A stretch of 64,000 nucleotides of DNA, taken from contig DAIDMQ010000037.1 of assembly GCA_027448945.1 (NCBI GenBank), positions 49,791 to 113,790 on the forward strand, in the 5' to 3' direction. A program made the translations under genes and the position numbers. The DNA is from Gallionellaceae bacterium. Its GTDB lineage: Bacteria > Pseudomonadota > Gammaproteobacteria > Burkholderiales > Gallionellaceae. Numbering within the stretch: the first letter of the stretch is position 1; each line of letters starts with the position of its first letter. Shown here in pieces: positions 36,870 through 48,050 of this stretch. A model generated the notes under the pieces. The model ran no database searches, was not told the DNA's origin, and saw only the letters and a list, made by a program, of their open reading frames with translations.

Positions 36870-36996
36870 TTAAGGTTCAGCGAACCCCCACCAAGGGCGG
36901 GAATCACACAAAAATTTGTCGCGAATTCTACACTAGATAGGGGACAGGATGCGGGATGCAGAATTCAGTTAAAAGCGGGGTAGCGACATTCAACGT

Positions 36997-37070
36997 TCCT
37001 GAATCCTGAATCCTGAATCCTGAATCCTGAATCCTGAATCCTGAATCCTGAATCCTGAATCCTGAATCCT
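36997..37070 (+). repeat. Perfect heptamer tandem repeat (TCCTGAA)x10 + TCCT
   Basis: Ten exact units counted from 36997 to 37066. The repeat runs into the stop codon of the PCu(A)C gene and has an inverted degenerate arm CAGGATG-CGGGATG-CAGAATT at 36945-36965. Confidence 0.97.
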
Positions 37071-37551
37071 AGTGATGATGCATGTGCATGTGTTCATCGG
37101 CTTCAGGCTTGACCTCGACCAAGGGCGTCACCTCTGCTTGCGAATTGACTTTGATCGTGCGGTTGTTGTCCAGCCTGATGGTCATGACAAAAGGCAGGCT
37201 GCTACCCGCCTTGATGGGTGCTTTGACATCCATCAGCATCACATGGAATCCCGCCTCACCCAGATTGACGACCTGACCTGCAGGCAGGGTGATCGCATCT
37301 ACCTCACGCATCATCATCATGCCGTCTTCATGACTCATGCGATGCAACTCGACGCTCTTCGCAGCGGGTGTGCTTACCGAGATCAAACGACCTGCTTGCT
37401 TGCTGATGATCTGCATATCCAGCATCGCGGTCTGCTGCCCCGGTGCAGTGGCTTTGACGGTCGCCCGTTCAACCTGAATATCGGCGGCAAACACGACAAC
37501 AGAGAACAGACTTGAAACGAAGGCGAGGGTGTACAAACTGAGTTTTTTCAT
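37069..37551 (-). CDS. Periplasmic copper chaperone PCu(A)C with His/Met-rich tail
   Basis: Signal peptide; ELHRM...MMMREV...HVMLM (H-x-M-x-H-x-M copper motif); C-terminal EHMHMHHH. Confidence 0.9.
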   Translation of the reverse strand: MKKLSLYTLAFVSSLFSVVVFAADIQVERATVKATAPGQQTAMLDMQIISKQAGRLISVSTPAAKSVELHRMSHEDGMMMMREVDAITLPAGQVVNLGEAGFHVMLMDVKAPIKAGSSLPFVMTIRLDNNRTIKVNSQAEVTPLVEVKPEADEHMHMHHH

Positions 37552-40161: not shown

Positions 40162-41304
40162 ATGAAATCCATAGCCTTCTTCCTTGCCCTGTTGCTCTCC
40201 CCACTCAGTTTCGCCCTGCCTATCGCCGAGATGGCGGTGCCGGAACTGAGTTCTAAAGCCTATTTGCTCTTCGACTATTCCAGCAATCAGGTGCTGCTCA
40301 ACCAGAACGGCGACAGCCGCATGGAGCCCGCCTCATTGACCAAGCTGATGACAGCCTATGTGACTTTCGATGCCCTCAAGCACGGCACCATAGAGATGGA
40401 TCAATCGCTATTCGTACCCGAGAATGCCGCGCGCAACATCAACGGCGAGTCCCGCATGTTGCTCAAAGTCGGTCAATCGGTCACTGTGGATCAGTTACTG
40501 CACGGCCTGATCATTCAGTCCGGCAACGATGCAGCCATCACACTCGCGGTGAATATCGCCGGTAGTGAAGCAGGCTTTGTCGACATGATGAACAAACAAG
40601 CGCAAGCACTGGGCATGGTCAACACACACTACACCAACCCGGTGGGCCTTCCCGATGCGGGACATTACAGTAGCGCCTTCGATCTGGCCTTGGTGGCCGC
40701 AGCCATCGTGCGTGACTTTCCGCAGTATTACCCGCTATTCTCCTTGCGCGAATACACTTTCAACAATGTCTCCCAAGCCAACCGTAACCGCTTGTTGTGG
40801 CTAGACCCGAATGCAGACGGAATGAAAACCGGGCATACCGAAAGTGCGGGTTTCTGCCTGGTCGGTTCGGCCAAGCGCGGACAGCACCGCTTGATCTCGG
40901 TGGTGTTGGGTGCCAGCAGCGACAGTCTGCGCACCAACGAGAGCCAACAGTTATTAAACTTCGGATTCCAGAATTTCGATGCGGTGCGTCTATATGCCAA
41001 AGACCAGGTTGTCTCCGATGCGCGCATATGGAAAGGCACGCAGGGCCATGTAGCTGTGGGCTTCAAGAGTGATGTGTATCTGAGCATCCCCAAAGACCAG
41101 TACAGCAAAGTCAAAGCCACACTGGAAACGCATCAACCCTTAGTTTCACCCATAGACAAGAGCACCCCAATCGGTGTGTTAAAGATTAGTCTGGCGGGTA
41201 AACCTTATGCGGAATTCCCGGTCTACCCTCTGGAGAACGTCGCTGCAGCCAATGTATTTTCACGCGGCTGGGACAGCATAAGACTGCTATTGGAGAGATA
41301 CTAA
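40162..41304 (+). CDS. dacC: D-alanyl-D-alanine carboxypeptidase (PBP5/6)
   Basis: PASLTKLMT (SxxK), SGNDA (SxN), KTGHT (KTG). Confidence 0.93.
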   Translation: MKSIAFFLALLLSPLSFALPIAEMAVPELSSKAYLLFDYSSNQVLLNQNGDSRMEPASLTKLMTAYVTFDALKHGTIEMDQSLFVPENAARNINGESRMLLKVGQSVTVDQLLHGLIIQSGNDAAITLAVNIAGSEAGFVDMMNKQAQALGMVNTHYTNPVGLPDAGHYSSAFDLALVAAAIVRDFPQYYPLFSLREYTFNNVSQANRNRLLWLDPNADGMKTGHTESAGFCLVGSAKRGQHRLISVVLGASSDSLRTNESQQLLNFGFQNFDAVRLYAKDQVVSDARIWKGTQGHVAVGFKSDVYLSIPKDQYSKVKATLETHQPLVSPIDKSTPIGVLKISLAGKPYAEFPVYPLENVAAANVFSRGWDSIRLLLERY

Positions 41305-41309
41305 AAGCC

Positions 41310-42167
41310 ATGATCGTTTACCTGAATGGACTATTCCTACCCGCCGAGCAAGCCCATATATCCGTATTGGATAGAGGCTTCATCTTCGGCGATGGCGTCT
41401 ATGAGGTCATACCGGTCTACTCACGTATCGCCTTCCGCCTGTCAGAACACTTGAAACGACTGCAACACAGTCTGGATGGCATAAAACTACCCAATCCACA
41501 TAGTGATGCAGAATGGACACAGTTGGTGAACGAGCTCATCTCGCACCACGACAGCGCGGATCAATATCTGTATCTGCATATCACACGCGGCGTGGCGGAA
41601 CGAGACCATGCTTTCCCCGATCCGCCGGTTGCGCCCACAGTGTTTATGCTCAGCAAACCGCTGCTTCCACCTGCTAACGACTTGCTGAAAAACGGTATCG
41701 CCTGCATCAGCGCCACCGACAATCGCTGGCTGCGCTGCGACATCAAGGCAATCTCCCTGCTGCCCAATGTCTTGCTGCGCCAGATGGCAGTCGATGCCGG
41801 TTGTGCCGAGACCATCTTGTTCCGTGAAGACCAGTGGCTGACCGAGGGCGCGGCCAGCAACATCTTCGTAATCAAGGACGGCACACTGTATGCGCCCCCC
41901 AAGGATAATTTAATGTTGCCCGGTATCACCTACGATATCGTGCTGGAATTAGCCGCGCTACATGACCTTCCACATCAGGTAAGGCGCATCAGCAAAGCCG
42001 AAGTGCTGGCGGCAGATGAATTGATCCTGAGTTCGTCGACTAAAGAGATCTTGGCGATCACTCGCCTCGATGGCCTGCCGGTCGGCAACGGCAAGCCCGG
42101 TGTGGTCCATGGCCGACTATACGACTATTATCAAAATTTCAAACGTGAAGTGATGCGTGCACTATGA
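41310..42167 (+). CDS. dat: D-amino acid aminotransferase (PLP class IV)
   Basis: DRGFIFGDGVYE, RCDIKAISLL.N, TEGAASN, LPGIT. Confidence 0.88.
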   Translation: MIVYLNGLFLPAEQAHISVLDRGFIFGDGVYEVIPVYSRIAFRLSEHLKRLQHSLDGIKLPNPHSDAEWTQLVNELISHHDSADQYLYLHITRGVAERDHAFPDPPVAPTVFMLSKPLLPPANDLLKNGIACISATDNRWLRCDIKAISLLPNVLLRQMAVDAGCAETILFREDQWLTEGAASNIFVIKDGTLYAPPKDNLMLPGITYDIVLELAALHDLPHQVRRISKAEVLAADELILSSSTKEILAITRLDGLPVGNGKPGVVHGRLYDYYQNFKREVMRAL

Positions 42168-42463
42168 CCGACAAACCCAAAACATTACCGTCAACCAATG
42201 CGTTGACCGATAGCTTGATCGAATATCCCTGCGAATTCCCGCTCAAGATATTCGGTCAGCAAAACGCGGGTTTCGCGCAAGCCGTACTTGAGGTCGTGAC
42301 CAAACACGATCCCGGTTTTGCGGCTGCCAGCATGGAGATGCGCGCCAGTAAAACGGCCCGCTACGTCAGCTTGACCTGCACCATACGCGCCACCTCACGC
42401 ACCCAACTCGACGCTGTCTATCAGGAGTTATGCGACCACCCCATGGTGGTGATGGTGTTGTGA
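42164..42463 (+). CDS. ybeD: YbeD/DUF493 family protein
   Basis: [33 protein letters not shown]; conserved position before lipB. Confidence 0.9.
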
Positions 42464-43164
42464 TGCAAAACGGCGTGTTGGAAGTGGAAAGTGAGAAGTG
42501 GGAAGCAAGCGCCAATCACATCGCTCCGCCCGCCCTTCACACCCTAGGACTCGTCGATTACCAAACCACTTGGGACGCGATGAAGCGTTTCACCGTGGCG
42601 CGCAGCGCCGACACGCGCGATGAAATCTGGCTGCTGCAACACCCGCCCACTTACACCCAAGGCTTGGCTGGCCTGCCCGAACACCTGCTGAATCCCACCA
42701 ACATTCCCGTGGTGAAAATAGATAGAGGCGGACAAATCACCTATCACGGCCCGGGGCAGATCGTTGCCTATTTATTGCTCGACATGCGGCGCTGGAAGAT
42801 AGGCGTGCGCGAACTGGTGACCGTGCTGGAAAATGCGGTGATCGATTTGTTAGCCGAATTCGGTGTCGCAGCCCGCAACCGCGTCGATGCGCCCGGCGTG
42901 TATGTGAACGGCGCAAAAATCGCCGCACTCGGATTGAAAATTAAAAATGGTCGCTGCTATCACGGCCTGTCGTTCAACGTGGACATGGACTTAACGCCAT
43001 TTAACAACATCAACCCCTGCGGCTACCAAGGCCTGCGCATCACTCAAGCTTGCGCCCTCGGCATCACCGCCAACATCAATGAACTGCAAGCGCAACTCGC
43101 ACAGAACTTGATACACGGTTTACAGCGGCATTACGCGGGTCAACAAAATTTCGTTCACGATTGA
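42463..43164 (+). CDS. lipB: Octanoyltransferase LipB
   Basis: [40 protein letters not shown]. Confidence 0.96.
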
Positions 43165-43177
43165 ACGGGTAAACACT

Positions 43178-46100
43178 ATGCAGCTTTTTCATCAGCCATT
43201 ATTTAATCCGCGCTTAATTGCTAAACGCTGTTCGCTCGCACCTACACCCGCTGCGCACAAACAAATTTTGCACGACTGGGCACAGACCATACGCAATGGC
43301 AGCATCACAAAAAAAGGCAACAAAGAAGCTGCGATACGCAGCGCGTTCATACAAAAATTCTTTATCGAAATTTTGGGTTATGTGCCCTTCGCCAGCGGTG
43401 CAGCACAAACGATTGCAGAAGAGCATCGAGCAGGCAAAGGCAGTGCCGATGCCGCATTAGGATTTTTTGCTAACGGTAAACCTCAAATCATCGCGCCCGT
43501 TGAGCTTAAAGGCGCGGACACCACCAACCTTGATGCCATCATGCCGGGGCGAAATAAATCTCCAGTACAGCAAGCATGGGAATACGCGGCAGATATTCAA
43601 GGACGAAAATTTATTGTGCTGTCGAATATGGTGGAAATCCGCCTGTATTCCTATGGACAAACACGACAAATTTATGAGCGTTTCGACATCGTTGCATTGG
43701 CTGATAGCGATTCGGAGTATCAACGCTTTCGCTTTTTACTCAGTGCAGAAAATTTGCTCGGTGGTCATACAGAAAAACTGCTGGTTGAAAGTGCTAGTGC
43801 CGAAAAAGAAATCACTCAGCAGCTGTATAGCGATTACAAAGCATGGCGCGTTCAGCTCATCCTCGCGCTTGCGCAGCACAATGAATTACCGCTGACCGAC
43901 ATCATCACCCACGCGCAAACTATCCTTGATCGCATGTTGTTTATCGCCTTCGCCGAAGACCGCGATTTACTGCCTGCGAAAACCATTGAGCAAGCCTACG
44001 TCCAGCGTAATCCTTACAATCCGCAACCGATTTGGGAAAACTTCAAAGGCTTATTTTATGCCGTGGACAAAGGCAATGCCGCCCTTGGCATTCCCGCTTA
44101 CAACGGTGGATTATTCGCCGCCAACACGCTTAAAGATTCGCTCAAGTTGCCCGACTCGGCGTGTGAAATTTTTAAGCAGTTAGGCGAATATGACTTTGCT
44201 TCAGAAGTCGGCGTAGCGGTGTTAGGTCACATTTTTGAACAGTCCGTTGCCGACCTTGAAGAGTTGCGCGAAATAACCGACCTCGACGCATTCAAACTTA
44301 AAGCGGATGAAGTCATCGTCACCAAACAAGCGCGCGGTGTATCGGGAAAGCGCAAACAAAATGGCGTGGTTTACACCCCAGATGACATCACCGCTTTCAT
44401 CGTTGAACAAACTTTGGGCGGCTATCTTGAACAACAACGCAATGCCTTATTAGCGAACTATCTAGATAGCAAAAAGCCACTGGATGAACAAGGCAATCTC
44501 AACTATCGCGTATCCAGCAAAGCCGAAAAAACCAACTACGGAAAACTCAAGCTGATTGATGCGACTCGCCTGACTGAATATCTGTTTTGGCACGCATGGC
44601 GTGAAACATTGCAGCACATCAAAGTGGTCGATCCCGCTTGTGGTTCTGGCGCGTTTCTCATTGCCGCATTTGATTTTCTGGATGCCGAATATCGCAATGT
44701 CAACGAGCAACTGCAAGCCATCACTGGCACGCGCGATTTGTTCGACATCAACCGTGAAATTCTTAACGGCAATTTGTACGGCGTGGACTTAAATCCCGAG
44801 TCCATCGAAATCACCAAACTCTCGTTGTGGCTCAAAACTGCGCAACACGGCAAACCGCTGCAATCTCTGGAAGCCAATCTGCGCGTGGGCAACAGCCTCA
44901 TCCAAGGACAAGAATTTTCTGAGCGTGCTTTCGATTGGCAATTCGCTTTTCCTGATGTTTTCAAAGCAGGCGGCTTCGACGTGGTGCTGGGCAATCCGCC
45001 TTATGTTCGGATGGAACGCCTCAAGCTCATCAAACCTTATTTAGAAAAACACTACGCTGTCGCCAGCGACCGCGCCGACCTCTACTGCTACTTTTTTGAG
45101 CTGGGCGTGCGCTTGCTCAAAGCAGGCGGGCGCATGGGCTACATCTCCTCGTCCACTTTTTTCAAAACAGGCTCGGGCGAACCGTTGCGTCGCTATTTAT
45201 TAGAAAAGACGCAACTGCTCACACTGGTTGATTTTGGCGACTTGCAAGTGTTTGAAGGGGTGACCACCTATCCCGCGATTATTGTGTTGGAGAAAAATGA
45301 CGCACGCGCTGCGAGCAATGAAAATGTAGGAGCTGGCTTGCCTGCGACAGCGACCCTCGCGGCTGAGGCCGCTCCTACAACACCTAGTCTCATCCAATTT
45401 CTCGCGCTCACCACTAAACTCGAAATCTCGCTATCCGAACATTTTTTAGCGCACACACAAACCATGCCGCAAAGCCAATTGGGGCGCGATAGTTGGCGGC
45501 TGGAAAACGACATCGCCGCGCGCCTGCACAGCAAGCTCACGCGAGGACATCCCACCTTAAAGCAAATCTATGGCTCGCCCTTATATGGAATTAAAACGGG
45601 TCTCAATGAAGCCTTCGTAATCGACCGTGCCACACGTGATGCGCTGATTGCACAAGACCCAAAATCTGCCGCTTTGCTCAAGCCTTTTCTCGAAGGCAAA
45701 GACCTGAAAAAATGGCGCATCGAACCGCAAGATTTGTATCTGATTTACATCCCGAAAGGCGTGCTCAACATTGCGGACTATCCGGCGATTCAAGCACACC
45801 TATTGCCCTACCGAGAACAATTAGAAAAGCGCGCAACTAAGCAAGCGTGGTTTGAATTACAACAAGCCCAAACGGCATACATGCCACTTTATGATGGCCC
45901 TAAAATTTCTTGGGGACGATTTCAACCAGAACCCTTGTACTCATTTGACCAAAAAGGGTTTTATGGAAATGATAATGTTTACACCATCCCAAACACGGGA
46001 TATTTTGAGCTCGCACTACTAAACAGTAACGTAACTTGGTTTATCACAAAGGCAATTTGTCCTCCTGTCAGCGGCGGCTTTTATCCAGTTCGAGGTAGTT

Positions 46101-46507
46101 TTGCTGAAGCATTTCCGATCCCCACCGCGAGTAATACCGAAAAATCTCACCTCGCCGCGCTTGCGCAGCAATGCCAACAAACCGCCGAAGCACGGCGTGA
46201 ATTACAAACCGCTTTCCGTAATCGCATTCCCGACCTAGCGATAGGCGGTAAAGCCCGTCTCACACAAAAGCTAGAACGCTGGTGGGAGCTTGATTTTGCT
46301 GCCTTCCGTACCGAGGTCAAGAAGCAATTCAAGCAGGACATCCCGCTGGCAGAGCGCAACGAATGGGAACGCTACTTCACCACCGAACGCGATAAAATCA
46401 CCGCGCTTAACGCAACCATTGCGCAACATGAAATGCACATCAATCAAGCGGTGTACGCATTGTTCCATCTGAGCAGTGAAGAAATTGCCTTATTGGAGTA
46501 CGCATGA
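43178..46507 (+). CDS. Single-chain Type IIG (Eco57I/TaqI-like) restriction-modification enzyme, N6-adenine methyltransferase plus endonuclease
   Basis: N-terminal PD-(D/E)xK pattern (ADAAL...VELK...QAWEY); GVVYTP; VDPACGSGAFL (motif I); FDVVLGNPPY (motif IV); ADLYCYF; TaqI-C-like specificity region. Confidence 0.9.
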   Translation: MQLFHQPLFNPRLIAKRCSLAPTPAAHKQILHDWAQTIRNGSITKKGNKEAAIRSAFIQKFFIEILGYVPFASGAAQTIAEEHRAGKGSADAALGFFANGKPQIIAPVELKGADTTNLDAIMPGRNKSPVQQAWEYAADIQGRKFIVLSNMVEIRLYSYGQTRQIYERFDIVALADSDSEYQRFRFLLSAENLLGGHTEKLLVESASAEKEITQQLYSDYKAWRVQLILALAQHNELPLTDIITHAQTILDRMLFIAFAEDRDLLPAKTIEQAYVQRNPYNPQPIWENFKGLFYAVDKGNAALGIPAYNGGLFAANTLKDSLKLPDSACEIFKQLGEYDFASEVGVAVLGHIFEQSVADLEELREITDLDAFKLKADEVIVTKQARGVSGKRKQNGVVYTPDDITAFIVEQTLGGYLEQQRNALLANYLDSKKPLDEQGNLNYRVSSKAEKTNYGKLKLIDATRLTEYLFWHAWRETLQHIKVVDPACGSGAFLIAAFDFLDAEYRNVNEQLQAITGTRDLFDINREILNGNLYGVDLNPESIEITKLSLWLKTAQHGKPLQSLEANLRVGNSLIQGQEFSERAFDWQFAFPDVFKAGGFDVVLGNPPYVRMERLKLIKPYLEKHYAVASDRADLYCYFFELGVRLLKAGGRMGYISSSTFFKTGSGEPLRRYLLEKTQLLTLVDFGDLQVFEGVTTYPAIIVLEKNDARAASNENVGAGLPATATLAAEAAPTTPSLIQFLALTTKLEISLSEHFLAHTQTMPQSQLGRDSWRLENDIAARLHSKLTRGHPTLKQIYGSPLYGIKTGLNEAFVIDRATRDALIAQDPKSAALLKPFLEGKDLKKWRIEPQDLYLIYIPKGVLNIADYPAIQAHLLPYREQLEKRATKQAWFELQQAQTAYMPLYDGPKISWGRFQPEPLYSFDQKGFYGNDNVYTIPNTGYFELALLNSNVTWFITKAICPPVSGGFYPVRGSFAEAFPIPTASNTEKSHLAALAQQCQQTAEARRELQTAFRNRIPDLAIGGKARLTQKLERWWELDFAAFRTEVKKQFKQDIPLAERNEWERYFTTERDKITALNATIAQHEMHINQAVYALFHLSSEEIALLEYA
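45325..45379. mobile_element. REP doublet (REPIN) embedded in frame in the RM gene
   Basis: GTAGGAGCTGGCTTGCCTGCGA ... TCGCGGCTGAGGCCGCTCCTAC; translates as [18 protein letters not shown]. Confidence 0.9.
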
Positions 46508-47031
46508 AAATCGGGTTTGTAGGAGCGGCCTCAGCCGCGAAATCGATTGTCGCGGCTGAAGCCTCTCCTACACATACAGCACATGGGCATCATGCTTTAC
46601 GCAAATGCCGCGTATCCATTGCAAACGGAATTTATCTCGTCACAGCGACAACGTTAGACCGTCAAAAATTCTTTTTAAATTTTGATGCGGCTTGTTCTGC
46701 TGCACGATGCTTGGAGGACGCAAAATGGCTGGGCGATGCAAAAATGCTAGCGTGGGTGTTGATGCCAAATCATTTGCATGGCTTATTGCAACTGGGTGAA
46801 CGCGATGATTTGAGTGCGGTGGTGCGCCGCATAAAGTCGGCGAGTGCGCAGCAAGTTAATCGCGTATTAAGTAAAACAGGCGCGGTATGGGCAAGCGCGT
46901 TTCACGATCACGCTTTGCGTGATGAAGATGATTTGCAGAATGTGGCGCGCTATATGGTGGCGAATCCATTACGTGCGGGTCTGGTAACACGAATTGGCGA
47001 CTATCCATTTTGGAATGCGGTATGGCTGTAG
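46504..47031 (+). CDS. REP-associated tyrosine transposase (RAYT, TnpA-REP, IS200/IS605 HUH superfamily)
   Basis: [16 protein letters not shown] (HUH), W...[20 protein letters not shown]...DYP.W (catalytic Tyr); flanked by REP doublets. Confidence 0.92.
46518..46572. mobile_element. REP doublet at the RAYT 5' end
   Basis: GTAGGAGCGGCCTCAGCCGCGA-aatcgattg-TCGCGGCTGAAGCCTCTCCTAC. Confidence 0.92.
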
Positions 47032-47081
47032 GAGCTGGCTTGCCTGCGACTGCACACTTCGCGGCTGAAGCCGCTCCTACA
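47027..47081. mobile_element. REP doublet at the RAYT 3' end
   Basis: GTAGGAGCTGGCTTGCCTGCGA-ctgcacact-TCGCGGCTGAAGCCGCTCCTAC; its GTAG contains the RAYT stop codon TAG (47029-47031). Confidence 0.92.
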
Positions 47082-47111
47082 AAATATAAATTTAACAAGA
47101 AAGAAATTAAC

Positions 47112-48050
47112 ATGAGCAACATCGAAAACAAACAAACGGGTGCGGCAAAAACGGCGCGCAATCCGATCAAAATCGTGCCGCTACAGGAACGCTTGCGCAA
47201 GCCCGACTGGATACGTGTGAAGTCGGGCAGCGGCACGGGCTATCACGATGTAAAGCGATTGTTGCGCGAACACAGTTTGGTCACGGTGTGCGAGGAAGCA
47301 TCCTGCCCCAACATCGGCGAGTGTTTTAGCAAAGGCACGGCGACGTTTATGATTTTGGGCGATGTGTGCACACGCCGCTGCCCGTTCTGCGATGTGGCGC
47401 ACGGCAAGCCGCTGCAGCCCGATGCCAACGAGCCGGCCAATCTGGCGCGCTCTATCGGCTTGCTGAATTTAAAATATGTGGTCATCACCAGCGTGGATAG
47501 AGATGATTTGCGCGACGGCGGGGCGCAGCATTTTGTCGATTGCCTGAGTGCGATACGCGCCAGCTCGCCCAACACCCGTTTGGAGATTTTGATACCCGAT
47601 TTTCGCGGTCGATTAGACGAGGCGCTGGATGCGCTGGCGATCAGTTTGCCCGATGTGCTCAACCACAATCTGGAAACCGTGCCGCGCTTGTACAAGCTGG
47701 CGCGCCCGGGTGCAGACTACGCGCATTCGCTCAAGCTGCTGAAAGATTTCAAGGCGCGCTTCCCCGATATTCCGACCAAATCCGGTGTGATGCTGGGCTT
47801 GGGCGAAACCGACGACGAGGTGCTGCAAGTGATGCGCGACCTGCGCGCCCACGATGTGAACATGCTCACCATCGGACAATACTTGCAACCGTCCGACGGC
47901 CATCTGCCGGTGCTGCGCTATGTGCCGCTGGAGACGTTCACGATGTTTGAGCAAGCCGCAAAAGAAATGGGCTTTGACCACGCCGCCTGCGGGCCGATGG
48001 TGCGGTCAAGCTACTACGCGGACGAGCAGGCGCATCTGGCGGGTGTGTAA
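47112..48050 (+). CDS. lipA: Lipoyl synthase
   Basis: [13 protein letters not shown] and CTRRCPFC cluster motifs, NHNLETV, VRSSY. Start at MSNIENK. Confidence 0.97.

Follow-up and report, generated by a model that had tools for sequence, protein, structure and literature searches.

Does a restriction-modification (R-M) gene that runs directly into the gene of a transposase inside a lipoate operon form one system with it, or have the two come to share a site by separate routes? The pair in question lies between lipB and lipA in the window, a stretch of 64,000 nucleotides from a Gallionellaceae bacterium (GenBank assembly GCA_027448945.1, contig DAIDMQ010000037.1, positions 49,791 to 113,790) to which all positions without a locus label refer. 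It consists of a type IIG R-M gene and the gene of a REP-associated tyrosine transposase (RAYT), with REPINs, doublets of hairpins built from repetitive extragenic palindromic (REP) sequences, in and around both. A first-pass annotation of the sequence had described these elements as one coupled cassette. Our comparison with about 130 related loci leads us to favour, on balance, a different reading, in which an old variable slot for defence genes between lipB and lipA holds a resident RAYT, the R-M genes in the slot turn over, and the coupling of RAYT to its upstream gene is generic, with no dedicated system behind it. The elements are as follows.

42430-43164, + strand: lipB, octanoyltransferase, stop codon TGA at 43162-43164 (above the cut-off of the NCBIfam LipB equivalogs)
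43178-46507, + strand: type IIG R-M gene of family A, intact, 1109 aa (Pfam Eco57I, N6_Mtase and TaqI_C; PADLOC REase_MTase_IIG)
45326-45378, + strand: REPIN R1, in frame in the R-M open reading frame (ORF), in the linker between methyltransferase (MTase) and specificity domains; -31.2 kcal/mol
46495-46498 and 46504-46507, + strand: R-M/RAYT junction read from the sequence, GGAG, a 5-nt spacer, and ATGA
46504-47031, + strand: RAYT, 175 aa (NF047646, Y1_Tnp, 4ER8)
46519-46571, + strand: REPIN R2, RAYT 5' flank, translated; -38.8 kcal/mol, z = -8.2
47028-47080, + strand: REPIN R3, RAYT 3' flank; -31.5 kcal/mol
47112-48050, + strand: lipA, lipoyl synthase, ATG at 47112 (TIGR00510, 6.9e-129, above cut-off)

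The reading we favour is carried by the company that each gene keeps elsewhere. The nearest family A relatives of the R-M gene (67-86% identity) are located at sites other than lipB-lipA, between two MacB/FtsX permease genes in G002 and L189 and beside a ParE toxin-antitoxin pair in L187 (labels in G and L are our own), and no RAYT was found beside them at these three sites. The nearest RAYTs (68-81%) occupy the same lipA-proximal spot as the RAYT of the window, behind genes of two other R-M families or behind lipB. At lipB-lipA, RAYT always adjoins lipA and is co-oriented with, and abuts, the gene upstream of it. That gene belongs to family B (type IIG with HSDR_N, Eco57I and TaqI_C) in L197, L190 and L210, being truncated in L210, and to family C (MmeI-type type IIG) in L196, and L217 holds a 41-aa remnant in which the N- and C-terminal ends of family C are fused. 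In the other three of the nine loci (L195, G192 and G099) no R-M gene precedes RAYT. The first-pass annotation had named RAYT at this site without the R-M gene in most relatives as an outcome that would count against its cassette; such loci exist, as a minority.

The coupling itself is found with genes other than R-M genes. RAYT overlaps lipB by ATGA in L195 and family C by ATGA in G081 and L217. In G192 (L204, G192:C21, 784-1947), which is the closest species with a lipA identity of 94%, lipB, a REP and RAYT make up one uninterrupted frame of 387 codons; since LipB and the RAYT core have no start codon between them, a LipB-RAYT fusion protein is possible. The overlap in the window is therefore not specific to R-M genes, and RAYT probably borrows its expression from whichever gene precedes it. 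A dedicated two-gene system would have its members co-occur, with neither commonly alone, and we found all three R-M families without RAYT and RAYT without R-M genes. A dedicated R-M/RAYT defence mechanism is thus not supported; the arrangement looks like long cohabitation instead, and the claim of one coupled cassette is given up.

The layout that the first-pass annotation had described was recovered in full. The R-M ATG (43178) lies 13 nt behind the lipB stop, the R-M stop and the RAYT start overlap on the ATGA at 46504-46507, and the lipA ATG follows shortly after the last REPIN, whose end falls at 47080-47082. The R-M gene and RAYT are physically joined, as had been said, and they are probably joined in expression as well. 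No terminator or separate promoter had been seen, and indeed promoter-like and terminator-like matches are no more frequent than in shuffled sequence, with none at the plus-strand gene junctions; an integrase is likewise absent from the lipB-lipA interval. Three more genes precede lipB on the same strand.

40162-41304, + strand: D-Ala-D-Ala carboxypeptidase (ORF call)
41310-42167, + strand: class IV aminotransferase (ORF call)
42164-42463, + strand: DUF493/YbeD-like gene (Pfam DUF493)

The order of this block is kept in relatives, and its genes are separated by 5 nt or overlap. Altogether seven co-oriented genes occupy 40162-48050 with overlaps or at most 80 nt between them, and they are probably transcribed as a single unit. 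RAYT seems to lack its own promoter, and its translation would probably come about by termination at the R-M stop and restart at the overlapping ATG, which stands ahead of a strong hairpin.

The lipB-lipA slot and its occupants

The first-pass annotation had suspected a defence hotspot and had proposed that lipB-lipA intervals be compared across relatives for empty and filled sites and for cargo turnover. That comparison bears the suspicion out. The gap between the two genes is at most 112 nt in 11 of 24 same-genus genomes, and the rest hold varied cargo (lipA identity to same-genus relatives is 83-94%). Family C is intact in the slot of G008 and G020 (PADLOC E = 0) and decayed in three others: an ISL3 element splits it in G007, it carries a frameshift in G024, and G004 keeps only a remnant. 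Family B stands in the slot of G230 and G158 without RAYT. The cargo is a type II methyltransferase with an endonuclease in G013, a zeta toxin pair in G019, HigBA in G016 and a DUF2238 gene in G012 and G014, and PIN, DUF6932 and DUF4160 genes are found in the slot too. Constant flanks with differing defence cargo, or with none, are what is expected of a core-gene-flanked hotspot, and on this gene content lipB-lipA is, as we read it, a long-lived variable slot for defence and toxin genes in the genus, which is probably Gallionella, judging by the source names of close homologues.

Some of the family C alleles record how such cargo decays. The family C gene of G007 (L045, G007:C6, 10205-14402) is interrupted by an ISL3-family transposase gene, and the match to the lipA of this genome (16005-16962) falls into two overlapping parts, a likely sign of a frameshift or of faulty assembly. 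At L217:3380-3505 and at 956-1306 of L015 (G004) the MmeI-type gene has lost its interior through two independent deletions, and the resulting ORFs join the first ~12 codons (MPLSxNEIRxR) to the last ~30-40 codons (FLFERYQxLTSLL...). The pattern points to repeated loss of the R-M gene from the slot with its ends kept.

The R-M protein of the window has the methyltransferase and target recognition parts expected of a type IIG enzyme, with a putative nuclease in the same chain. Pfam models match it for Eco57I (1.3e-44), N6_Mtase (4e-19) and TaqI_C (1.8e-7, residues 835-981), and the PADLOC REase_MTase_IIG model does so over residues 46-710 (4e-128). Motif I DPACGSG (485-491) and motif IV NPPY (606-609) of a gamma-class N6-adenine methyltransferase are invariant across 17 homologues, as are the PD-ExK-like residues D91, E109 and K111, which lie in a region (residues 1-240) that matches no Pfam nuclease model. 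A C-terminal target recognition domain is present in the same chain, and its core (901-1000) varies between alleles. An identification as PglX of the bacteriophage exclusion (BREX) system was rejected, since the protein stays under every NCBIfam PglX cut-off (at best 116 bits against 500) and its neighbours are lipB and RAYT. The structure model is of moderate confidence (mean predicted local distance difference test score, pLDDT, of 68), and the low values at residues 709-776 (pLDDT <50) weakly suggest that the linker between MTase and specificity domains is disordered.

At its other sites family A has a small companion. A 127-aa PF25212 gene (HVO_A0114-like winged-helix) precedes it in G002 (L046:8083-8466), L187 (1031-1414) and L189 (3078-3461), overlapping the family A start in G002 and stopping 5-7 nt short of it in L187 and L189. 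No such gene was found in the genome of the window. The PF25212 protein may be a controller or partner of the family A enzyme. The left junction of the window was compared with the sequence 5' of the family A relatives, and the homology amounts to an 8-mer, which is unconvincing.

The assignment of RAYT rests on a score of 143 bits against NCBIfam NF047646 (cut-off 80), on a Pfam Y1_Tnp match and on a match at 5e-9 to PDB 4ER8, the E. coli TnpA-REP; histidines H90 and H92 of the HUH motif and the catalytic tyrosine Y150 are invariant in the alignment, as the family demands. The genome has one close copy, and the sole other Y1 match is elsewhere and 29% identical. An insertion sequence of the IS200/IS605 type, which would call for multiple near-identical copies, each with left and right end hairpins of its own, was rejected on this count. 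Members of the RAYT clade are 59-81% identical and are mostly from Gallionellaceae, going by the source names of the named matches. The divergence of the nearest ones (68-81%) is within the range of the flanking housekeeping genes, which fits long residence of RAYT at the lipB-lipA site. In a tree of 148 residues the RAYT of the window is sister to that of L190, itself 3' of a family B gene (support 83/91); branching within the clade is otherwise unresolved, so the tree does not decide between vertical residence and re-insertion. Further members of the clade are likewise embedded in operons in the orientation of their neighbours, which are ATP synthase subunit genes, sdhB and gltA, or the genes of a PapD-like chaperone and a putative usher (L201 in G190, L203 in G183, L207 in G042, and L214/L215). 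Life inside operons seems typical of the clade.

REPINs in and around the two genes

The locus contains three REPINs of 53 nt, each a doublet of GTAG-headed hairpins, with folding energies of -31 to -39 kcal/mol. All three lie within 1.76 kb, and no further copy was found in the 2.45-Mb genome; relatives have 4-39 REP half-sites per genome. A repeat of another kind, some six and a half tandem periods of 14 nt (two TCCTGAA heptamers each), lies well before lipB at 36983-37073. R2 and R3 flank RAYT so closely that they contribute to it. The R2 hairpin starts 15 nt past the RAYT ATG and encodes residues ~6-23; residues 1-27 are R2 read-through, the conserved core begins with GHHALRK at residue 28, and ahead of this core no in-frame ATG, GTG or TTG exists besides the ATG that overlaps the R-M gene. 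The GTAG head of R3 provides the RAYT stop TAG (47029-47031), and R3 ends 31 nt ahead of lipA with no T run after it. In many relatives (L197:7988-8046, L196, L200, L210) the RAYT ATG occupies the hairpin loop of the 5' REP (GCGGGCC-ATG-CCCGC), and the remaining REPIN is translated as PANENxNRAQGALLQ in a protein that begins MPANE; the loop ATG is missing in the window. In these relatives the nuclease's own DNA target may gate its translation.

R1 consists of two inverted GTAG-headed REPs and adds 18 aa to the R-M protein. It is missing from all 16 aligned R-M homologues. R1 and R3 share 89% identity over 56 nt and have an asymmetric arm pair in common, R2 being different. The presence of GTAG REPs in frame within genes has already been documented (Di Nocera 2013, PMC3733652). 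Exact copies of the 21-nt REP arm are plentiful in Pseudomonas, Xanthomonadales and Undibacterium; being so widespread in Gammaproteobacteria and Undibacterium, the arm names no REP donor in an exact-pattern search.

The site that R1 entered has received other elements in other hosts. The family A linker after VTTYPAIIVLEK carries unrelated palindromes in several homologues, L187 among them. In the window the in-frame insert in this linker region (45299-45400) is the GTAG REPIN, and in G002 (L046:10580-10770) it is a CGTC-type doublet, which is dispersed over 24 sites in G002 and has none in the genome of the window. In P0002 and P0005 the linker carries CCCTCTCCCGC hairpins, and in P0004 and P0007 others.

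Rival histories of the pair

The history that we favour, an old slot with a resident RAYT and a turnover of R-M genes, would run as follows. RAYT with its flanking REPINs, an arrangement known as a REPtron, would live at the lipA end of the slot in one sub-lineage, and type IIG R-M genes would turn over between lipB and this REPtron. Family A would have been spliced in without its usual 127-aa partner gene, most likely by replacement of a family B gene through recombination inside the conserved C-terminal tail; we propose family B because the R-M stop lies 11 nt before GTAG in the window, with the same spacing at the family B R-M/RAYT junctions, and because GCATGA is shared. Later, as the sequence shows, a copy of the 3' REPIN entered the inter-domain linker in frame: R1 and R3 are 89% identical, and the genome has no other copies.

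Several observations weigh against this history, and most of them are what one would expect if type IIG R-M genes and this RAYT clade were a co-travelling module in which RAYT and its REPINs help to move or reshuffle the R-M gene, for example with REPINs as recombination or cleavage sites at module boundaries, or in which the R-M gene stabilises RAYT against loss. We regard such a module as a tentative alternative. R-M genes of three families lie directly before RAYT in ~10 distinct loci, more often than lodgers with no link at all should meet. Four adjacent pairs lie outside lipB-lipA.

L211: family B and RAYT by sucD/ORF6N; upstream R-M ORF of 1048 aa
L219: family B and RAYT by an amt-like gene; upstream R-M ORF of 967 aa
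G081: family C and RAYT by pyrD; complete upstream R-M ORF
L284: family C and RAYT on a short contig, context unplaced; R-M ORF partial

The upstream ORF was checked for three pairs outside lipB-lipA, one of which is L209 with 1013 aa. At least three of the ~55 RAYT loci outside lipB-lipA have a type IIG gene directly upstream, for which p is ~2e-4 under an assumed background of 0.2%. The family B junction recurs at lipB-lipA, sucD and amt, and the family C junction is kept between lipB-lipA and pyrD; since these junctions are conserved between sites, the two genes of a pair do change sites together. The enrichment within lipB-lipA is weak: of 9 loci with RAYT, 6 have an R-M gene or what is left of one, compared with 6 of the 21 loci that lack RAYT (odds ratio 5, one-sided p = 0.06). 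REPINs lie in frame within the RAYT-adjacent R-M ORFs at no fewer than five independent sites, one in the window, two in family B and two in G081, a result with a chance of (1/3)^5 = 0.4% if frame were neutral; one of the family B sites is common to all four aligned full-length family B alleles. In G081, 10 of the 11 genomic REP half-sites fall inside the R-M/RAYT locus. The family B alleles, moreover, are mosaics: ~620 aa at the N-terminal end and ~70 aa at the C-terminal end are conserved, with exchange of the part that runs from NPPY through the specificity domain. Just before GGFDVVIGNPPY, at the left break, L197 (6675-6739) and L190 (703-767) carry a REPIN and L211 (~residue 570) another palindrome.

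Other observations speak against a co-travelling module. Each R-M family is found without RAYT, even at lipB-lipA (G008, G020, G230, G158), family B is without it in 8 GTDB species, and more than 50 loci of the RAYT clade have no R-M gene. L219 has the same family B mosaic break with no insert, a palindrome being present at the break in three of the four alleles. The idea that REPs form the outer ends of a composite transposon was rejected as a general rule; they are there in L196 and L219 and absent 5' of the R-M gene in the window, G081 and L211. A swap of the specificity domain at R1 in family A was also rejected, since identity falls in the linker and the specificity core alone and stands at the same level on both sides of R1. 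RAYT is not embedded in a large protein in any of the best 150 representatives of the window RAYT, and the hotspot by itself predicts much of the adjacency. The suggestion of the first-pass annotation that RAYT and REPs act on the R-M gene has some support, adjacency being well above chance and REPINs entering R-M ORFs, and its suggestion that they mobilised the cassette finds none for this pair. It had also given the co-location of some RAYT groups with R-M loci as established; our literature search found no paper on an R-M/RAYT link, nor any on a lipB-lipA hotspot.

Another history, which we consider unlikely, is a recent import, in one piece, of the 3.9 kb that comprise the family A gene, RAYT and the three REPINs, in which a homologous stretch from another strain, whose R-M gene already held a REPIN, replaced the lipB-lipA interval. 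The low guanine-plus-cytosine content of both genes (47-52%, with flanks at 53-60% and the whole genome at 52.2%) and the confinement of the REPINs to the locus fit joint import and so also count against separate arrival, and the abundance of the 21-nt arm in other groups would agree with a foreign source. The final ~10 codons of lipB have no counterpart in relatives, tblastn alignments to relatives stopping at residues 234-240 of 244. However, no donor with this arrangement was found, and the nearest RAYTs come from this very site in Gallionellaceae and have flank-like divergence. Import is moreover compatible with a variable slot and a resident RAYT as the nature of the locus, and only shifts the events to another strain. 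That the arrangement is a chimera assembled at the repeated REPINs is very improbable. The genome comprises 42 contigs assembled from a sediment metagenome, with a local depth of ~5-6x and repeats at the junctions, which is where such an error might be sought, but Logan contigs, which were built separately from the likely source run, cross all three junctions without differences (lipB/R-M, 42300-43654; R1 to the R-M/RAYT junction, 45059-46786; RAYT/R3/lipA, 46760-47585). Identical RAYT-R3-lipA pieces occur in a run from a different study, and the gene order is repeated in several independent assemblies of relatives. Given the independent contigs and the second study, the arrangement is real and not an assembly artefact. 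No empty-site or excision alleles were seen in the DNA metagenome runs that contain the locus.

R-M genes do recur in front of RAYT, and REPINs have indeed colonised R-M ORFs; an old slot with a resident RAYT explains these facts only in part. A bolder proposal, which we hold to be more doubtful than a co-travelling module as such, would make this RAYT clade a specialised lodger of type IIG R-M genes: pairs would travel between sites, REPINs would be seeded into permissive loops of the enzymes and specificity modules swapped there, so that RAYT and REPINs drive allele diversification and the R-M gene shelters RAYT. If the link is functional, it would connect two classes of selfish or defence elements that the literature searched does not link, and would suggest a mechanism for the turnover of R-M specificity; if not, two lodgers share one slot in a neat but ordinary way. 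Either way a well-sampled defence hotspot is added within an essential cofactor operon, whose cargo a housekeeping promoter probably drives. In the usual description a RAYT is a single gene, stable and inherited vertically; the one described here appears to lack start signals of its own and to piggyback on the preceding gene, and it recurs behind type IIG genes and litters them with in-frame REPINs.

Comparison with known systems

The R-M protein resembles the Eco57I-/MmeI-type IIG/IIL enzymes (MmeI structure 5HR4) in that a putative N-terminal nuclease motif, a gamma-class N6-adenine MTase and a TaqI_C-type specificity domain are joined in one chain, and in that the specificity core (~900-1000) is hypervariable between alleles. 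It differs from them in matching solved structures only remotely, in the 18-aa REPIN insert in its linker and in having no preceding PF25212 gene. For this insert the closest parallel is with the Rickettsia palindromic elements (RPEs), which, in the account of Ogata 2000 as cited in PMC3733652, are inserted in frame in protein genes. Like the RPEs so described, the REPIN here is a short palindromic mobile repeat that has entered in frame and adds a peptide loop to a protein left intact; unlike them, as far as that account goes, it belongs to a neighbouring RAYT, and the same loop took up unrelated families of palindromes across hosts.

Defence hotspots flanked by core genes include cDHS1 and cDHS2 of Pseudomonas aeruginosa and the defence-island hotspots of E. 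coli. The lipB-lipA slot shares with them its housekeeping flanks, a cargo that varies between close species and consists of R-M, toxin-antitoxin and candidate defence genes, frequent empty sites and the lack of an integrase. In contrast to them, it lies in a tight co-directional operon, where lipB and lipA probably share a transcript with the cargo, its cargo spans a modest 0.5-6 kb, and one lineage has a RAYT at a fixed end.

The REPtron concept, in which a RAYT (TnpA-REP) has GTAG-headed REP or REPIN flanks, is said to go back to Nunvar in 2010 and to Bertels and Rainey in 2011. A REPtron in this sense is a RAYT with flanking GTAG-headed palindromes (Di Nocera 2013, PMC3733652; structure 4ER8). 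The RAYT of the window agrees with it in its HUH and tyrosine nuclease, its one close copy per genome and its GTAG hairpin doublets on both sides (R2 and R3), and its sister RAYTs are laid out alike. It departs from the concept in having three local REPINs in place of a population dispersed over the genome that matches the flanking REPs, and in its apparent dependence on its neighbours, since it has no start signals of its own, overlaps the upstream gene (to which it is fused in a relative) and lies inside an essential operon. Its clade, finally, unlike the REPtron as described, recurs directly behind type IIG R-M genes.

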